Source of the DNA: an uncultured Methanosarcinales archaeon | GTDB taxonomy: Archaea; Nanobdellota; Nanobdellia; Woesearchaeales; CAYVYK01 | Direction of reading: 5' to 3' | Length of the DNA: 64,000 nucleotides | Assembly (NCBI GenBank): GCA_964455675.1 | Contig: CAYVYK010000001.1 | Span: 76,463 to 140,462, forward strand | Part shown: in pieces, positions 45,494-55,283 of the stretch | Numbering within the stretch: position 1 is the stretch's first letter | Layout of the letters: each line of letters begins with the position of its first letter | Made by a program: the position numbers and the translations under genes | The notes under the pieces: generated by a model | What the model was told of the DNA's origin: nothing | What the model saw: the letters and a program-made list of their open reading frames with translations, nothing else | Databases searched by the model: none

Positions 45494-45604
45494 AGCGGGG
45501 AGAGGGACTCGAACCCCCGAATAAACGCTCTCAGCTAGTCATCGCTTGGTAGCTCCTCAGAGCCGTTCTGCAGGCGCTCGCCTTAGCCGCTTGGCTATCC
45601 CCGC
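45494..45604 (-). tRNA. tRNA-Cys(GCA) with a 38-nt intron at about 37/38 (45530..45567)
   Basis: Acceptor stem GCGGGGA/TCCCCGC, discriminator U73, anticodon stem AGCGC/GCGTT, loop CT-GCA-G..A, T-loop TTCGAGT; 73 nt after intron removal. Confidence 0.85.
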
Positions 45605-46928: not shown

Positions 46929-46962
46929 TCCTGCTCGTATTTTTTCTTATTGAAAAAGAAGG

Positions 46963-47076
46963 TGGACAGCTTTCTCGGGTTCCCGTTCACAAGAACAGTA
47001 CCACCGAGAACGTAGACCTGCTTGACTTCCGTGTTCGAAATGGGAACGGGTATGACCAGGCCGCTATGACCGTCCA
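46963..47076 (-). rRNA. rrf: 5S rRNA (stand-alone, not linked to 16S/23S)
   Basis: Minus strand TGGACGGTCATAGCGG...ACCCGTTCCCATTTCGAACACGGAAGTCAAGC...GCTGTCCA with paired ends and the loop C signature, followed by a T-rich tract. Confidence 0.92.
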
Positions 47077-47097
47077 GGACGAAGGAGTTATACTCCA

Positions 47098-48168: not shown

Positions 48169-48960
48169 CTACTCGATATCGCGTACGTCTTTCATGCTGT
48201 GAATGTGCGCTTCGCGCTCGCTGCTGACATGTCCAAACAGCACTCCCGCTTTGGCAAGTTGCGGAAACACGTCTTGCTCAATGCTTTTTCCTGAGTATTC
48301 AAGGACCTCGGGCTCCGCAACGAATATGCTCGAGAATCCGAGGTATTCCTGTGATTTTTCTGTGTGCTGAATGAACTCAAGTATCTTGCTTCCCTCCATT
48401 TTGACGGTTCCTTTTTTTGCTGGTGACGTCGTAAGGAGGAGCGTTGCTGCACCATTATGCACAAGGTGATCATTCCAGAGTGCATTGACATTAACCTTCG
48501 CAAAGTAAATGTCCCCATAGACGATGAGGCAGCGGGTCGTGATTTTTCCTCGAACTGCTTTAAGTGATTCCATTGAGCCCTTGGCTTGTCGATCTTCCAC
48601 ATAAGTGAGATGGACTCCAAACTTTGTCCCCTCTTGCACGAGTGTAAAGACCGCTGTGAGAATCTGCTGCTCACCGATGAGGTAGACGTTCGTGAATCCT
48701 GCTTCCTTGAGTTTTCGCAGGTTTCTGCTGATGAGTGGAACCCCCTTGATGGGTATGGTTGTGCGGTAATAACCTCCCTCGATGGATTGTCCCCTCGCAG
48801 GCCCTCCCGCAAGGATGACCGCTGTCTTTTGCTGCCCAAGCGCCTTTCCAACAAGGTGCTCGACTGCTTGGCTTCGGTTCCTGATGTAGAGGCCATCAAC
48901 GATAGAGTCAACTGCCGTGAGCGTCTTTGCATTCAGTGTGATACTGACCTTGTTTTTCAT
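48169..48960 (-). CDS. Ribbon-helix-helix (CopG-like) domain fused to a degenerate sugar-phosphate nucleotidyltransferase domain, 263 aa
   Basis: N-terminal KVSITLNAKTLTAVDSIV...RNRSQAVEHLV (RHH); then AVILAGG lacking the GTR and PK residues, plus YGDIYF. Confidence 0.75.
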   Translation of the reverse strand: MKNKVSITLNAKTLTAVDSIVDGLYIRNRSQAVEHLVGKALGQQKTAVILAGGPARGQSIEGGYYRTTIPIKGVPLISRNLRKLKEAGFTNVYLIGEQQILTAVFTLVQEGTKFGVHLTYVEDRQAKGSMESLKAVRGKITTRCLIVYGDIYFAKVNVNALWNDHLVHNGAATLLLTTSPAKKGTVKMEGSKILEFIQHTEKSQEYLGFSSIFVAEPEVLEYSGKSIEQDVFPQLAKAGVLFGHVSSEREAHIHSMKDVRDIE

Positions 48961-48998
48961 TGGTGCGAAATAGTCGAGTATTACGAGGTATATAAATA

Positions 48999-49018
48999 TG
49001 TCGGATTTTTATCCGACA
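48999..49018. promoter_or_regulatory. Perfect 8-4-8 inverted repeat TGTCGGAT-TTTT-ATCCGACA between divergent promoters; candidate operator
   Basis: Lies between a minus-strand ATATTTATATA box (about 48987-48998) and a plus-strand AAGATATTTATA box (about 49034-49045). Confidence 0.55.
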
Positions 49019-49068
49019 AAGTAGGATATCGGTAAGATATTTATAGGACCAGATGCCTCCGAATTGAT

Positions 49069-51753
49069 ATGAAAATCACAATGATAGGCACAGGCTACGT
49101 TGGGCTTGTCACAGGAACATGCCTTGCAAACTTGGGCAACAACGTTATCTGTTTGGACATAGACGAGCACAAGATTGAGCAGCTCAAGCGAGGCATTATG
49201 CCTATCTATGAGCCAGGCTTGGGCGATCTGGTTATTCGTAATATGAAGGAAGGAAGGTTATCTTTCACAACGGATAAGCAGCGCGCTATCCAGGAAAGTG
49301 ATATTATTTTCATCGCAGTGGGAACGCCTCCGCGCGACGACGGTTACCCGGACGTTACGTTTGTCGATCAAGCTGCCGCTGATATTCTGAAGTTCATGAA
49401 CGCTGAAAAGATTGTTGTCGTGAAAAGTACTGTTCCTGTGGGTACGAATAGTCGTGTCAAAGAGTTCCTTTCTTCAAGGCAGGATTTTCCGATTCATGTA
49501 GTCTCAAATCCTGAGTTCTTGAGGGAGGGAAAGGCAGTGCGTGATTTTAACATCCCTGATAGAATCGTGATCGGTACAGATTCCACGTATGCAAAGAAGG
49601 TTATGGTTGATCTCTACAAACCGCTTGAGCGTGCGGATAAGCCGATCATTGTGACGGATGTTGCTTCGGCAGAGATTATCAAGTATGGCTCGAATGCGAT
49701 GCTTGCGGCAAGGATCAGTTTCATCAATCTTCTCTCAGAGCTCTGTGAGAAGGTTGGCGCTGATATTAGGGCAGTGGCGAAAGGTATAGGTCTTGATAGC
49801 AGGATTGGTCCGAGGTTTCTTCAGGCGGGCGCAGGCTATGGTGGGAGCTGTTTTCCAAAGGATGTGAAAGCATTGATATCTACTCTTGAGCATAATGCGA
49901 TTCCCTCTGATTTTTTCCAAAGTGTTGAGAACGTGAACGCCCGGCAGAAGGAAAAGGCCGTGGAAAAGCTTCAGTTACTCCTCGGTAATCTGCGAGGTAA
50001 GAAGGTTGGTCTGCTTGGCCTTAGCTTTAAGCCCGAGACTGATGACATGCGTGATGCCCCGTCAGTTGTAGCGGTTCGTCAACTGCAGAGCTACGGAGTG
50101 CATGTTGTAGTATTTGATCCTGTTGCAATGGATAATGCAAAAAGGATTCTACCGCAAGTCCATTTTGCGAATAGTCCCTATGAGGTCTGTGACGGTGCTG
50201 ACGGAGTGATTCTCATGACCGAGTGGGATGAGTTCCGGTCGCTCGATAAATCTCGTATGTTACAGTTGATGAGATCGCCAAATTTTGTTGATGCAAGGAA
50301 CCTGTATGATCCAGCAGAGATGGTACGGCTGGGCTTTAGGTATGATTCGATCGGCAGATTGACGCCAGAAAAGGCAGCAGAGGGAACAGAGGGGATCCTG
50401 CGTCTTCTGCAAAAGTACGGCCAAGAGCATTTGCTCTCATATTGGGACGCGATATCTCCAGAGGAGCGGCAGATACTCATTCAGCAGATATCGTCAGTTG
50501 ATCTCGAGCGTCTGAGAGAGCTTCATATAAATGGTGATGTTGCGGTTCCATCTCAAATCGATCCGTGGGAGGATATTGTTGTTCCAGAAAGCGATCCTGA
50601 ATTGTCTCTGCAGGCAAAGAAGCTTGGAATTCAAGCGATCAAGCAGGGAGAGGTTGGGCTCTTTGTGGTGGCAGGTGGCCAAGGAACAAGGCTTGGTTTC
50701 AAGGGACCGAAGGGGGCGTTTGTCATTTCCCCGATTTTGCAGAAGAGCATCTTTCAGCTTCATGCGGAGAAGATTCGTGCTCTCGAGAAGAGGTATGGTG
50801 TAAGTCTTCCTTGGTTTATCATGACTTCGCCCGACAATCATAAGGAGACATGTGAATTCTTCGCGCTCCATGGTAATTTTGGTCTTTCCGATGTCTTCAT
50901 CTTTCCGCAGGAGATGCTTCCCTCATTGGATATGGATGGCAGGATGGTGCTGAAGTCACCCTACGAGATCATGATGAATCCCGACGGCCATGGGGGCTCT
51001 GTCCGTGCGCTTGCAAAGACCGGGGCTCTTGACACGATGAAACGGCTGGGCATCAAGTACTTGTTCTATTTCCAAGTGGATAACATCCTCATCAACATCG
51101 CAGACCCACTATTTATTGGGTATCACATCCAAAAGAATGCTGAGATGTCCGCAAAGTGCGTCGAGAAAACTGGTCCAGAAGAGAAGCTTGGTGTGTTTGG
51201 AAAGGTGAACGGTAGGCCAGGAGTGATTGAGTATCATGAGCTCTCCGACGAATTGAGGCACGCAAAGGACGCCCACCAAAACGCATTGTTTGGTAAGGGA
51301 AGTATCGCAATCCATGTGCTGAGTACAGATTTTCTTGAGAGGCTGAGCACTCATCCGTCGGATTTGCCATTCCATCGCGCAGTTAAGAAGGCACACACCG
51401 TGCATGGGGAAATTGAGGTAGTAAAATTTGAGAAATTCATTTTTGATGCGCTACCGCATGCAAAGACGATTATGATAATGTGCGTTGACCGCAGCACGGA
51501 GTTTGCTCCGGTAAAGAACGTGACGGGTGTGGATAGCGCCGAATCTGCAATTGAGATGCAGACTGCTCTCTTTGCTGGATGGCTAAAGGATCTTGGTGTC
51601 GTGATCCCTCGTGATAAAAGTGGGAATTTGGAGGGTCACATAGAGATCAGTCCGCTATTCGCTCTTGATAGGGAGGAACTTGCAGAAAAACTTGATCCCG
51701 CAAAGGTTAGGTTTAAACCAGGGATTGGTCTTGCGCTTGATGCCCAAGGGTAG
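49069..51753 (+). CDS. ugd: Fusion of UDP-glucose/GDP-mannose dehydrogenase family domain (about aa 1-432) and UDPGP-family (UAP1-like) UDP-sugar pyrophosphorylase (about aa 440-894)
   Basis: GTGYVGL, SNPEFLREG, catalytic GGSCFPKD, FKPETDDMR; then AGGQGTRLG, PKG, PDGHGG, VDN, KFEKFIFD, FAPVKN. No stop at the junction. Confidence 0.9.
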   Translation: MKITMIGTGYVGLVTGTCLANLGNNVICLDIDEHKIEQLKRGIMPIYEPGLGDLVIRNMKEGRLSFTTDKQRAIQESDIIFIAVGTPPRDDGYPDVTFVDQAAADILKFMNAEKIVVVKSTVPVGTNSRVKEFLSSRQDFPIHVVSNPEFLREGKAVRDFNIPDRIVIGTDSTYAKKVMVDLYKPLERADKPIIVTDVASAEIIKYGSNAMLAARISFINLLSELCEKVGADIRAVAKGIGLDSRIGPRFLQAGAGYGGSCFPKDVKALISTLEHNAIPSDFFQSVENVNARQKEKAVEKLQLLLGNLRGKKVGLLGLSFKPETDDMRDAPSVVAVRQLQSYGVHVVVFDPVAMDNAKRILPQVHFANSPYEVCDGADGVILMTEWDEFRSLDKSRMLQLMRSPNFVDARNLYDPAEMVRLGFRYDSIGRLTPEKAAEGTEGILRLLQKYGQEHLLSYWDAISPEERQILIQQISSVDLERLRELHINGDVAVPSQIDPWEDIVVPESDPELSLQAKKLGIQAIKQGEVGLFVVAGGQGTRLGFKGPKGAFVISPILQKSIFQLHAEKIRALEKRYGVSLPWFIMTSPDNHKETCEFFALHGNFGLSDVFIFPQEMLPSLDMDGRMVLKSPYEIMMNPDGHGGSVRALAKTGALDTMKRLGIKYLFYFQVDNILINIADPLFIGYHIQKNAEMSAKCVEKTGPEEKLGVFGKVNGRPGVIEYHELSDELRHAKDAHQNALFGKGSIAIHVLSTDFLERLSTHPSDLPFHRAVKKAHTVHGEIEVVKFEKFIFDALPHAKTIMIMCVDRSTEFAPVKNVTGVDSAESAIEMQTALFAGWLKDLGVVIPRDKSGNLEGHIEISPLFALDREELAEKLDPAKVRFKPGIGLALDAQG

Positions 51754-52863: not shown

Positions 52864-53562
52864 TTAAACTTGATGGAAATGGTGCTCGGCGCGGGCGATA
52901 TCAGCAGGGCATCCGAGATCGATCCATGAGTCCTGAAGGATCATCACGTGTACGTTCTGTTCTTTGGCGAGGATGTTGATGGCATCTGTGATATAATATT
53001 CTCCGCTGATGCTTGGTTTAATGTGTTTGAGCGCAGGAAAGATGAGCGATGTGAACTTGTAGAGTCCTGCGTTGATAATGTTTGATGGGGGATGAACTGG
53101 CTTTTCGATGATGCGTCGTAGCTTCGTTCCTTGATACTCGAGAACGCCATATTTTTCCGGGCATTCACTGCGCGTTCCGCACACAGTGCAGTCTTCCTTT
53201 GCCTGGATGAGTTGTTGTATGTCTCGTAGAGAGTAGTAGTTGTCGCCGCTGATGACGATGAACGGACTTCCGTCGGTAAACGATTCGGCTGCTGCGATGG
53301 CGTCTCCCGTGCCGAGCATGGATCGCTGCTCGATGTATGTTACATCAAATGCTCCTTTGTAGGTTGTATCAACATAGGTGATGATCTGGTCTTTGAGATA
53401 GTGAACGATAATTCCAATTTCTCGTATGTGTGCTTCTTTGAGTGCGTCAAGGATGTATCCGAGGAATGGTTTGCCGTGGATCGGGATGAGTGGCTTTGGT
53501 CGGTTGTTGGTAAGTTCTCCCATCCGCATTCCTTTTCCTGCCGCAAGGATGACTGCTTTCAT
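52864..53562 (-). CDS. Sugar-phosphate nucleotidyltransferase (GlmU-N/RmlA-like), 232 aa
   Basis: MKAVILAAGKGMRM..LT..RPKPLIPI, LGTGDA, GDN, IIEKP, INAGLY, WIDLG.P.DI. Confidence 0.9.
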   Translation of the reverse strand: MKAVILAAGKGMRMGELTNNRPKPLIPIHGKPFLGYILDALKEAHIREIGIIVHYLKDQIITYVDTTYKGAFDVTYIEQRSMLGTGDAIAAAESFTDGSPFIVISGDNYYSLRDIQQLIQAKEDCTVCGTRSECPEKYGVLEYQGTKLRRIIEKPVHPPSNIINAGLYKFTSLIFPALKHIKPSISGEYYITDAINILAKEQNVHVMILQDSWIDLGCPADIARAEHHFHQV

Positions 53563-55283
53563 TCGTGTTTCTCCACATTTCCATTATTGATAAAGGTTGT
53601 GTCCACAAGACTGATGATCTGTCCTGCGAGCTTTTGTGGATCGTGGCGCAGCAGGTCGCGCTTGTGCCAGAATCGTGTGACCGCTGTTCCTGTCGGGATA
53701 TCGCCAAGAAGGTCCGCAAGTATTGGCGATGTGCCAAGCCGTTCTATCTCCTCAAGGTCAACTTTAACGAGGAAGGATTTTTGCTGTTCGTACTGGTGGA
53801 GAACGTGCAAATCTGGGCTTCGAACGTTGAGCAGGCAGTAATCAATCTTTGCTCCGCATGCACTCTGTACTGATTTGAGATGGTCTGATGCGGTGAAGAT
53901 GTCCGTTTGATATGGTTGTGTCACAATGTTGCAGACATACAGTTTCACGGCTTTGGTTGTTCGAAGCGCTTCTGCAATTCCTGGGATGAGAAGGTTCGTG
54001 ATGATACTGGTATAGAGGCTTCCGGGACCGATGATGATGAAGTCTGCGTCAAGAATCGCTTGTACTGCAGGAGCGTACGCTTCTGGGTGTGTTGGTTGCA
54101 GGTACGCATCAGTGATTCTTGATGGTTTCTTGTCGTGTTCAAACCTCTGCACGACCTGGTCCTCAGATTCGCTCACGGTTCCATCTTCACGCCGAACGCA
54201 GATGTTGATGTCATCAAGGGTTGCGGGGTACACTTTTCCCGAGACATTCAGGATCTTGCTCGCTTCGATAATGGCTTGCTCAAAGCTTCCGGTCATTTTG
54301 GTAAGTCCGGCAATGAGGAGGTTCCCGAGGCTCTGTCCTTCCAGGTTTCCTTCGGTAAATCGATAGTTAAAGAGCTTAAGGAGCAGGTCTTCCGCATCCG
54401 ATAGGGCCACAAGATTGTTTCTGATGTCTCCCGGAGGAAGCATGCCAAGCTCTTTGCGGAGTGTCCCGCTGCTTCGTCCGCTGTCCGTCATCGTCACGAT
54501 TGCAGTGATGTTCTTGCTGTAGTGCTTGATGCCTTGGAGGAGCATGGGCATTCCTGTTCCTCCTCCGATGGCGACGATTTTTGGTCCTTTCTTCAGGTAG
54601 ATTTCTCTATCCGTATGCTCGAGGAGTGTTGCGACGTCACCTAGCGTTTTAATTTCGTAGTCTGGAATCTCGAGTTGGTTTTTCGGGGTGAGAACAGAGT
54701 ATTTTCCATGGAGTAGCCTTGCGGTAATCATGCCAAGCTTGTTCGCTGACTTTATTTCGTTGTCGATTCTGTCCCCGACGCATAAGACCTGTCGTGGTTT
54801 GAGATTGAGCGATCGTAGTATCTTGAGGAATTTTTCTTCTTTTGAAGGATTGGTATCAATGATGATGATGTCAAAGTAGTCGGCAAGGCCGAGGAGCTCG
54901 ACTTTTTTTCCTTGGAACGAGGGATCTCCCGTAGTGACAAGGCAGAGCTTGACATGGTTCTTGAGCTCAGCAAGGAGGTCTGCTGTTTCGGGGAATGGAA
55001 CAATGCCGTGGAGGTGTTCTTCTTGGAGGTATGCTCCTCGTCCAATGGTTCGTAATTCTGCTTTTTTTATTGCAGCAAGCTCGTAGGATTCAAGAAGCTC
55101 ATCGAGGAGCACCGCAAAGTGTGGAGTAGTTATTGCTCGCATCTTTTCGCGAAGATTGTTCGGAGTATCTAGTCTCTGCCTGCCAAGCGCTTCCGCGACC
55201 GCTGCAAGGGCCGCAGGAGTTACCTGTGTAGTTTGGTCAAAAAGCGTGTCGTCAAGGTCAAAGATCACGGCTTGGATTTTCAT
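53559..55283 (-). CDS. Fusion of a HAD-superfamily hydrolase and a YvcK/GlmR (UPF0052/CofD-like) domain, 574 aa
   Basis: HAD motifs FDLDDTL, LVTTG, K, VGDRIDNEI; then KIVAIGGGTG, DSGRSSGTLR...PPGDIRN, GPGSLYTSII.NL, RHDPQKLA. Confidence 0.88.
   Translation of the reverse strand: MKIQAVIFDLDDTLFDQTTQVTPAALAAVAEALGRQRLDTPNNLREKMRAITTPHFAVLLDELLESYELAAIKKAELRTIGRGAYLQEEHLHGIVPFPETADLLAELKNHVKLCLVTTGDPSFQGKKVELLGLADYFDIIIIDTNPSKEEKFLKILRSLNLKPRQVLCVGDRIDNEIKSANKLGMITARLLHGKYSVLTPKNQLEIPDYEIKTLGDVATLLEHTDREIYLKKGPKIVAIGGGTGMPMLLQGIKHYSKNITAIVTMTDSGRSSGTLRKELGMLPPGDIRNNLVALSDAEDLLLKLFNYRFTEGNLEGQSLGNLLIAGLTKMTGSFEQAIIEASKILNVSGKVYPATLDDINICVRREDGTVSESEDQVVQRFEHDKKPSRITDAYLQPTHPEAYAPAVQAILDADFIIIGPGSLYTSIITNLLIPGIAEALRTTKAVKLYVCNIVTQPYQTDIFTASDHLKSVQSACGAKIDYCLLNVRSPDLHVLHQYEQQKSFLVKVDLEEIERLGTSPILADLLGDIPTGTAVTRFWHKRDLLRHDPQKLAGQIISLVDTTFINNGNVEKHE

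Follow-up and report, generated by a model that had tools for sequence, protein, structure and literature searches.

In PutA, a ribbon-helix-helix (RHH) domain is fused to proline-catabolic enzyme domains, and the protein autoregulates the divergent putA-putP region. A comparable architecture is found in the protein described here, RHH-NT, which is encoded in a 64,000-nucleotide (nt) stretch of contig CAYVYK010000001.1 (positions 76,463 to 140,462 of the forward strand; hereafter the window, with position 1 as its first letter), assigned to the Woesearchaeales. RHH-NT joins an N-terminal RHH domain to a degenerate sugar-1-phosphate nucleotidyltransferase (NT) domain, and its gene is divergent from a gene of UDP-sugar synthesis, with a conserved array of short boxes between the two. 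As judged from these sequences, it very probably regulates the supply of sugars to the cell surface, as a one-component RHH protein that has its own operator and target and a fold new to such sensors; about 170 related genomes show the gene next to the array and to UDP-sugar synthesis genes. No description of this architecture as a regulator was found in the literature on RHH domains combined with nucleotidyltransferase/NTP_transferase domains or on Woesearchaeota transcription factors. The genes and domains concerned are as follows:

48169-48960, (-) strand: RHH-NT regulator ORF, 263 amino acids
48826..48960, (-) strand: RHH domain, residues 1-45 (profile matches, Pfam RHH_1, AlphaFold2 helices)
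48169..48825, (-) strand: degenerate sugar-1-phosphate NT-like domain, residues 46-263 plus stop, presumed to act as ligand sensor (Pfam, Foldseek)
49069..51753, (+) strand: ugd-UAP target gene, encoding UDP-glucose 6-dehydrogenase (UGD) joined to a UDPGP/UAP-type UDP-sugar pyrophosphorylase, 894 amino acids (Pfam, NCBIfam)

Relation to described systems

The closest sequence relative of the RHH-NT N-terminus is NikR. Both proteins hold an RHH domain and a C-terminal ligand-binding oligomerization domain (a role that is presumed for RHH-NT), and the box TCNTAC of RHH-NT resembles the NikR half-site TCATAC. However, the C-terminus of RHH-NT has the PF00483/PF12804 NT fold, which places it outside the NikR family proper, whereas that of NikR is an ACT-like tetramerization and Ni-binding domain. 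The operator of RHH-NT consists of three to four boxes at 10-11 base pairs (bp), instead of two half-sites 16 bp apart, and its likely ligand is a sugar nucleotide rather than a metal. With PutA, RHH-NT shares the combination of an RHH domain with an enzyme fold, multiple sites in a divergent spacer, and a predicted regulation of its own pathway. PutA is, however, an active enzyme whose DNA binding is controlled by redox and membrane state, while the enzyme fold of the family to which the window protein belongs appears catalytically dead; only its signature-intact relatives, described below, might resemble PutA.

The reuse of an NT paralogue with an altered signature loop to regulate nucleotide-sugar supply has parallels in GMPPA/GMPPB, KONJAC/VTC1, and GalF/GalU, the first two pairs being also the closest structural matches to RHH-NT (7d72/7d74 and 8yre). 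Unlike RHH-NT, which holds a DNA-binding domain and is accompanied by a conserved operator, GMPPA, KONJAC, and GalF act post-translationally on an active enzyme. Arc, MetJ, ParG, and CopG likewise have operators made of short boxes, direct or inverted, at a spacing of roughly one helical turn and with presumably cooperative binding (PMC3413123), although the box sequence of RHH-NT differs, its promoters are of the archaeal BRE/TATA type (BRE, B recognition element) instead of bacterial, and its sensor domain is fused. Finally, in contrast to active sugar-1-phosphate NTs, RHH-NT lacks the defining signature loop and the second metal-binding Asp, and in the window protein the EKP Lys is missing too.

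Few transcription factors are recognizable in DPANN archaea, which are uncultured or barely cultured and need their cell surface for host attachment. In RHH-NT, regulator, operator, and target are all readable from sequence, with the operator kept almost base for base across two DPANN phyla, which makes the system a testable entry into DPANN gene regulation. If the proposal is true, a sugar nucleotidyltransferase turned ligand sensor would constitute a new sensor fold for transcription factors, and the series from intact to decayed active sites would be a natural example of a pathway enzyme becoming a regulator.

The RHH-NT protein family

Homology searching recovered 328 relatives of RHH-NT, nearly all of them full length (262-275 amino acids) and about 50% identical, which come almost without exception from metagenome-assembled genomes of Woesearchaeota/Nanoarchaeota. 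The only database names that they carry are 'NDP-sugar pyrophosphorylase family protein', 'sugar phosphate nucleotidyltransferase', and 'hypothetical'; naming them 'NDP-sugar pyrophosphorylase' or 'hypothetical' makes the enzymatic repertoire of such small genomes look larger than it is. The window protein is the most divergent member, with at most 59% identity to any homologue, a QHT motif where the family has QKP, and an additional operator box. Its nearest homologue is P0002 (58% identity). The G+C content is 49.6% in the window versus a mean of about 37% over 80 orthologous loci (L001-L080).

The N-terminal domain of these proteins is, by its sequence, an RHH domain of the NikR type (CopG/Arc/MetJ/NikR superfamily). 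The window protein alone yields weak NikR matches only (E~0.07), and the NikR models of NCBIfam cover only its residues 3-46. Compared with the PDB, however, a family profile of the N-terminus retrieves NikR from E. coli (1q5v, E 7e-8) and P. horikoshii (2bj1, 3.5e-6), as well as an RHH antitoxin, and CopG at 4e-3; Pfam RHH_1 is found in 35 of 36 RHH-NT members. In 118 aligned members the N-terminus is the best-conserved part of the protein (consensus MKxKISITINEKTLxDIDSIIDNIYIRNRSQAIEHLV), with K4, S6, T8, D22, N28, R29, and S30 invariant. K4, S6, and T8 align with the β-strand of NikR, and N28-R29-S30 with its NRSEAI; in the window protein the strand reads K-V-S-I-T, and an RNRS turn precedes helix 2. 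In RHH proteins the β-strand reads bases, and the turn at the start of helix 2 (G/N-x-S/T, NRS in NikR) grips the DNA backbone. Since the invariant residues sit on these two elements, a role in DNA binding is suggested, over mere dimerization. An AlphaFold2 (AF2) monomer model places helices at residues 11-21 and 29-41 after an extended N-terminus, with a pLDDT of 50-60 for the RHH region, as is expected for the monomer model of an obligate intertwined dimer.

The C-terminal domain is confirmed as a GT-A-like α/β sugar-1-phosphate NT fold. Residues 47-223 match PF00483/PF12804 (NTP_transferase/NTP_transf_3) with E~1e-8 (5e-8 for PF00483), barely over the gathering score, and the NT models of NCBIfam (archaeal GlmU, Man-1-P guanylyltransferase, MurU, RmlA) all stay far under their cut-offs. 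The AF2 model has a mean pLDDT of 83, mostly above 90 in the NT domain, and its Foldseek matches include 7x8k, 4ecm, 4y7u, and 7d74 (best E 1e-17, TM 0.71-0.73); it superposes on GDP-mannose pyrophosphorylases (VTC1, GMPPB/GMPPA), RmlA, and MurU. The canonical catalytic residues are altered, as mapped from HMMER and MAFFT alignments:

GGxGTRLxP loop: GGPEExL in the family, variable, and wholly deleted in one lineage (L205, Micrarchaeota); in the window, Arg56, which is not family-conserved
PK Lys: conserved Arg (R66) in the family; R66 in the window
First metal-binding Asp (RmlA D111): kept in the family as D150 in YGD; D150 in the window
EKP: QKP in the family; QHT in the window
WxDxG Asp (RmlA D226): His in the family (xHIH); H252 in the window

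By contrast, the positions that in NT enzymes form the lining of the sugar and nucleoside pocket are invariant or almost so in the family, namely G52-G53, E123, G128, K183-G184, E189-G190, Q198, F209-S210, and E228. This pattern suggests that catalysis has been lost and the sugar/nucleoside pocket retained. An intact NT gene is present in the window at 52864-53562 (E 4e-65 to the archaeal GlmU type), and others follow UGD in orthologous loci.

The first-pass annotation of this DNA, made from its letters, had proposed an RHH N-terminus fused to an NTP_transferase-like domain, and both identifications have held: the former by the NikR profile match and RHH_1, the latter by Pfam and Foldseek. Its statement that the GxGTR and PK residues are replaced is correct for GxGTR, the window having LAGGPARG...YYRTTIP in place of GGxGTRLxP...PK, and only partly for PK, where the position of the catalytic Lys holds the conserved R66. 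With an RHH domain detected and the canonical catalytic residues gone, the sequences support its idea of a DNA-binding regulator with an enzyme-derived domain.

The conserved box array between regulator and UGD

The regulator and ugd-UAP are separated by a spacer of 108 bp, in which the following elements are found:

48989..48996, (-) strand: regulator TATA box, TTTATATA in gene orientation (TATATAAA on the (+) strand), 28 nt upstream of the ATG
48999..49007, (-) strand: box 4, AATCCGACA in regulator orientation, an additional box; left palindrome arm
49011..49018, (-) strand: box 3, TGTCGGAT in regulator orientation, of inverted type (compare TGTAGGATA and TATCCGATA in orthologues); right palindrome arm
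49021..49028, (-) strand: box 2, TATCCTAC, near-invariant in 76 species-representative loci
49032..49039, (-) strand: box 1, TATCTTAC, invariant in 76 loci; adjoins the BRE position of the ugd promoter or overlaps it
49038..49045, (+) strand: ugd-UAP TATA box, TATTTATA, 23 nt upstream of the ATG

The distances of 23-28 nt from TATA box to ATG imply leaderless or near-leaderless mRNAs. Both TATA elements form part of a perfect mirror pair of 9 nt each, TATAAATAT (48991-48999) and ATATTTATA (49037-49045). In orthologues, TTTATATA occupies the equivalent place in most loci with two TATA boxes, and a conserved TTTAAATA or TATAAATA stands at the ugd TATA position in all of them. Rfam gives no match within the intergenic region, and the array is placed either upstream of the TATA boxes or between them, which makes an RNA element improbable.

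What is conserved in the spacer is a near-invariant array of about 35 bp adjoining the ugd TATA box, made up of three 8-bp boxes, TATCTTAC / TATCCTAC / TATCCGAT (or TATACTAC), the TATC starts of which are 11 and 10 bp apart. Aligned orthologous spacers share the block TTTAAATATCTTACCnTTATCCTACTTTATCCGATA(nn)TTTATATA. The sample comprised 80 loci, each from a different species-level genome, and a 20-mer core (up to 4 mismatches) was found in 76 of them and in the window, always right upstream of RHH-NT and in the same orientation. Elsewhere in the approximately 650 kb of these loci it has only two weak, chance-like matches with 4 mismatches, and the window holds one match versus 0.02 expected. 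Information content across the 76 loci is near maximal from -5 to +29, a range that includes positions beyond the search core, and falls to about 0 bits in the flanks.

Read in regulator orientation, the window array is TATAAATATCTTACCGATATCCTACTTTGTCGGATAAAAATCCGACATATTTATATA, with canonical boxes 1 and 2 and a box 3 that is one base off the TGTAGGAT of other loci. Box 4 starts 11 bp past box 3, and thus in phase, and abuts the regulator TATA box; it occurs in none of the other 165 distinct contexts of a set of 166, drawn from 187 loci, to which the nearest homologue P0002 does not belong. In this set the third box occurs in the following forms:

TATNNTAC (mostly TATACTAC): 66 contexts
TATCCGAYA, self-symmetric: 62 contexts
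TRTAAGAT, inverted box 1: 8 contexts
T[GT]TAGGATA, inverted box 2: several contexts

Palindromes formed by boxes 2 and 3, TATCCTAC-TTn-GTAGGATA, recur (e.g., in L084, L110, L057, and L205). Two layouts are found: in one, as in the window, the array is flanked by two TATA boxes, and in the other, seen in about 56 of the 166 contexts, there is one palindromic TATA, ATTTAAAT, with the array between it and the regulator ATG. In some orthologous loci (L009, L014, L021, L041, L042, and L049) an insert of 150-250 bp lies between operator and regulator ATG. Strong hairpins are found in it, among them TCGAAAATC-AAA-GATTTTCGA and GAAACTTTTTGTGAAAAAGTTTC, and the insert is possibly a structured leader or a small mobile element.

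The first-pass annotation had singled out a perfect palindrome between the two TATA boxes as the operator. The palindrome is indeed there, TGTCGGATTTTTATCCGACA at 48999-49018, with perfect 8+8 arms (TGTCGGAT-TTTT-ATCCGACA). As the conserved operator it had to be rejected: it is absent from all other orthologous contexts of the set of 166, the outcome that the first-pass annotation itself had named as refuting, and it is statistically ordinary in the window, which contains 21 perfect inverted repeats with 8-nt arms and loops of 0-10 nt, so that taken by itself it could be due to chance. What makes it significant is where it lies and the homology of its arms to conserved boxes. It is a lineage-specific elaboration of the conserved array, formed by boxes 3 and 4, and not the conserved unit. 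The broader expectation of a DNA element conserved between regulator and UGD did stand, in the form of the array. With up to 3 mismatches allowed, the 64-kb window yielded no further copy of the operator, and no wider regulon was seen there or in the 80 loci, no whole genome having been scanned.

Association of the array with nucleotide-sugar genes

The divergent arrangement with UGD, also noted at the outset, is itself conserved. Of the 80 loci, about 72 have RHH-NT and UGD in divergent orientation, usually 55-130 bp apart, and UGD is followed there mostly by an AglF/GlmU-like NT of 240 amino acids and often then by an SDR resembling UXS or a sugar epimerase. In the window, the UGD part of the fusion is complete and the UDPGP/UAP part is eukaryote-type. 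None of the 80 loci holds a UAP fusion or a UAP-domain match, UGD being a separate gene in them; the Ugd-UAP fusion thus looks like a non-orthologous replacement plus fusion.

A search of a metagenome collection by DNA alone, with ATATCTTACCNNNATCCTAC as the query, recovered the gene pair. At least 120 stretches matched, at least 107 of them with the extended motif. Among the matches listed, RHH-NT lies directly downstream of the extended motif in 84 of the 93 cases with enough contig, and UGD directly upstream in 76 of 94, whereas the 13 matches without the extended flanks have neither gene. These 13, together with a few one-mismatch extended matches (L090, L091, L164, L132, and L181), were treated as chance matches; they have neither gene nearby and lack the TATA flank and the third box.

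In loci in which the pair is split, the motif remains with UGD when the regulator is elsewhere (L102, L115, and L165) and with the regulator when UGD is displaced (L105, L121, L124, and L179). That the motif stays with either gene when the pair breaks fits an operator serving both promoters. In 'Ca. Tiddalikarchaeum' (Micrarchaeota), the same operator, TATATTACC-TT-TATCCTAC-TTG-GTAGGATA, accompanies a degenerate member of 256 amino acids whose signature loop is deleted; this member is divergent from an SDR and an AglF-like NT, with no UGD. What the targets have in common is nucleotide-sugar synthesis. On two further metagenome contigs, the full operator stands before an NT of 335 amino acids with an intact signature (L123) and before an uncharacterized ORF of 377 amino acids (L095), which hints that targets differ between lineages.

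Proposed regulatory mechanism and alternatives

Cooperating dimers of RHH proteins are known to occupy arrays of short boxes in direct or inverted orientation (PMC3413123). We consider it fairly probable that the 263-amino-acid protein is a one-component regulator which acts through its RHH domain on the box array, represses its own gene and the divergent UDP-sugar operon, and uses the NT-derived domain as a sensor. RHH dimers would occupy the 8-bp boxes (TATCYTAC, with inverted or palindromic variants), and the spacing of 10-11 bp between box starts would place successive dimers on one face of the DNA. The interval between the back-to-back promoters, which are predicted to be leaderless, is taken up by the array, its end boxes lying on the BRE positions beside both TATA boxes, so that an occupied array would block TFB/TBP; with the end boxes so placed at both promoters, joint repression of the two transcription units is the simplest outcome. 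The operon repressed would be Ugd-UAP in the window, and UGD with the AglF/GlmU-like NT and the UXS/epimerase-like SDR in relatives. The NT-derived domain would bind a nucleotide sugar or sugar-1-phosphate of the pathway, coupled to oligomerization or DNA affinity, the outcome being a feedback control over the supply of glycan precursors. As a guess from the pathway, the ligand could be UDP-Glc, UDP-GlcA, a downstream UDP-sugar, or Glc-1-P/UTP.

Several points weigh against this proposal. Box 1 overlaps the BRE/TATA region, and its conservation is partly confounded with core-promoter constraint; the RHH domain is modeled at low confidence (pLDDT 50-60, as a monomer), so the model provides no positive evidence; and to fill three or four boxes the protein would require an oligomer of a putative kind. 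Residues of catalytic type persist in the family, with R66 at the Lys position, D150, and K199, and residual or altered enzyme activity may remain, to judge from their conservation. The window protein, furthermore, deviates from its own family at the EKP motif, with QHT and not QKP. Finally, an archaeal site upstream of BRE/TATA can activate instead of repress. The same protein and operator could thus recruit TBP/TFB to the UDP-sugar promoter and repress only the regulator gene, an alternative that we regard as unlikely but worth weighing. In the single-TATA layout (about 56 of 166 contexts) the array is downstream of the TATA for the regulator and upstream for UGD, a geometry that in archaeal regulators is typical of autorepression plus activation. 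Box 1, however, abuts the TATA box and lies over the BRE position, an arrangement that points more often to occlusion, and the two-TATA layout is mirror-symmetric for both promoters.

The remaining alternatives differ from joint repression by a ligand sensor in what the two domains do. The NT domain might still catalyze nucleotidyl transfer, with DNA binding reporting turnover, as in the trigger enzymes PutA and BirA; abundant relatives with the complete GGxGxRLRPxT...PK / GD / EKP / WxDxG signature and the same RHH domain would fit this, as would the conservation of R66, D150, and K199 in the degenerate family. Nevertheless, the triphosphate-binding loop is variable in the family and deleted in one lineage, the second metal-binding Asp is His, the window protein has no EKP Lys, and intact NT enzymes are encoded nearby, all of which makes this alternative decidedly improbable. 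A regulatory subunit like GMPPA, KONJAC, or GalF, which would not bind DNA, would use its RHH domain for dimerization, and would leave the array to be read by another factor, receives a still lower probability. Among the top structural matches there are indeed the complexes GMPPA/GMPPB and VTC1-KJC2, where active NTs are regulated by inactive paralogues, but the invariant residues lie on the DNA-contacting β-strand and the phosphate-binding turn, motif and gene co-occur almost one-to-one across phyla, and the boxes resemble the NikR half-site. Hardly credible at all is a toxin-antitoxin-type module, with an RHH antitoxin and an NT toxin, or a palindrome that is a functionless chance hairpin. 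Toxin-antitoxin systems in which an RHH protein is paired with a 'nucleotidyltransferase' are often described in the literature, and the window contains 21 equally perfect palindromes. Yet the domain is a GT-A-like sugar NT and not of the Pol-beta/MNT fold, the gene is single-copy with a fixed synteny with UGD across 80 species, and the arms of the palindrome share homology with the phased boxes that are conserved; the toxin-antitoxin reading was rejected on the fold, which is not that of a Pol-beta-type minimal NTase, and on synteny.

Signature-intact relatives

A profile search over 1.84 billion representatives yielded 140 clusters at E <= 1e-30, nearly all of 240-290 amino acids with RHH at the start. 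The NT signature is complete in about 13 of 128 full-length representatives. This signature-intact subfamily, with the motifs GGxGxRLRPxTYExPK, NGD, EKP, and WFDxGT, is large and ranges over Altiarchaeota, Nanoarchaeia, Aenigmatarchaeota, Parvarchaeota, Micrarchaeota, Woesearchaeota, and Patescibacteria, and its genes have polysaccharide-synthesis, phosphoglucomutase, or gluconeogenesis genes as neighbors. Both grades are found in 'Ca. Tiddalikarchaeum anstoanum' (L205, 1906-3852), where a degenerate RHH-NT is followed about 300 nt downstream by a signature-intact one and then by a phosphoglucomutase, so that the two coexist as paralogues in one genome.

The β-strand of the signature-intact relatives, RVTITL, is that of NikR (QRVTITLD), and in 6 of 7 loci (L201-L208) the DNA about 60 nt upstream of their genes has at least two TCATAC/TCATAT boxes in direct or inverted orientation. 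These TCATAC boxes match the NikR half-site, GTATGA-N16-TCATAC (PMC7055735), a resemblance that is suggestive for a short degenerate pattern in 7 loci. The degenerate branch combines the strand KISIT with boxes TC(T/C)TAC, suggesting, from this small sample, that reading strand and box co-vary between branches. A wider proposal, to which we would give slightly less than an even chance, is that RHH-NT proteins form a large unrecognized class of one-component regulators of nucleotide-sugar and glycan-precursor metabolism in ultra-small prokaryotes (DPANN, Altiarchaeota, and Patescibacteria). Intact members would be moonlighting enzyme-repressors on NikR-like TCATAC boxes, and the Woesearchaeota/Micrarchaeota branch would have decayed to a pure sensor, with strand (RVTIT to KISIT) and operator (TCATAC to TCYTAC) changing together.

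Other features of the window

The intact GlmU-N/AglF-like NT gene of the window (52864-53562, (-) strand) is overlapped at its start, by 4 nt, by the 3' end of a gene at 53559-55283 ((-) strand) that encodes a protein of 574 amino acids with a HAD-hydrolase domain fused to a CofD/YvcK-type domain; given this overlap, the two genes probably form one operon. At 45494-45604 ((-) strand), Rfam reports a 111-nt tRNA match (46.7 bits) that is not called by ARAGORN; an archaeal tRNA gene with an intron would fit this. A stand-alone 5S rRNA gene (71 bits) lies at 46961-47077 on the (-) strand and overlaps mechanically listed ORFs.

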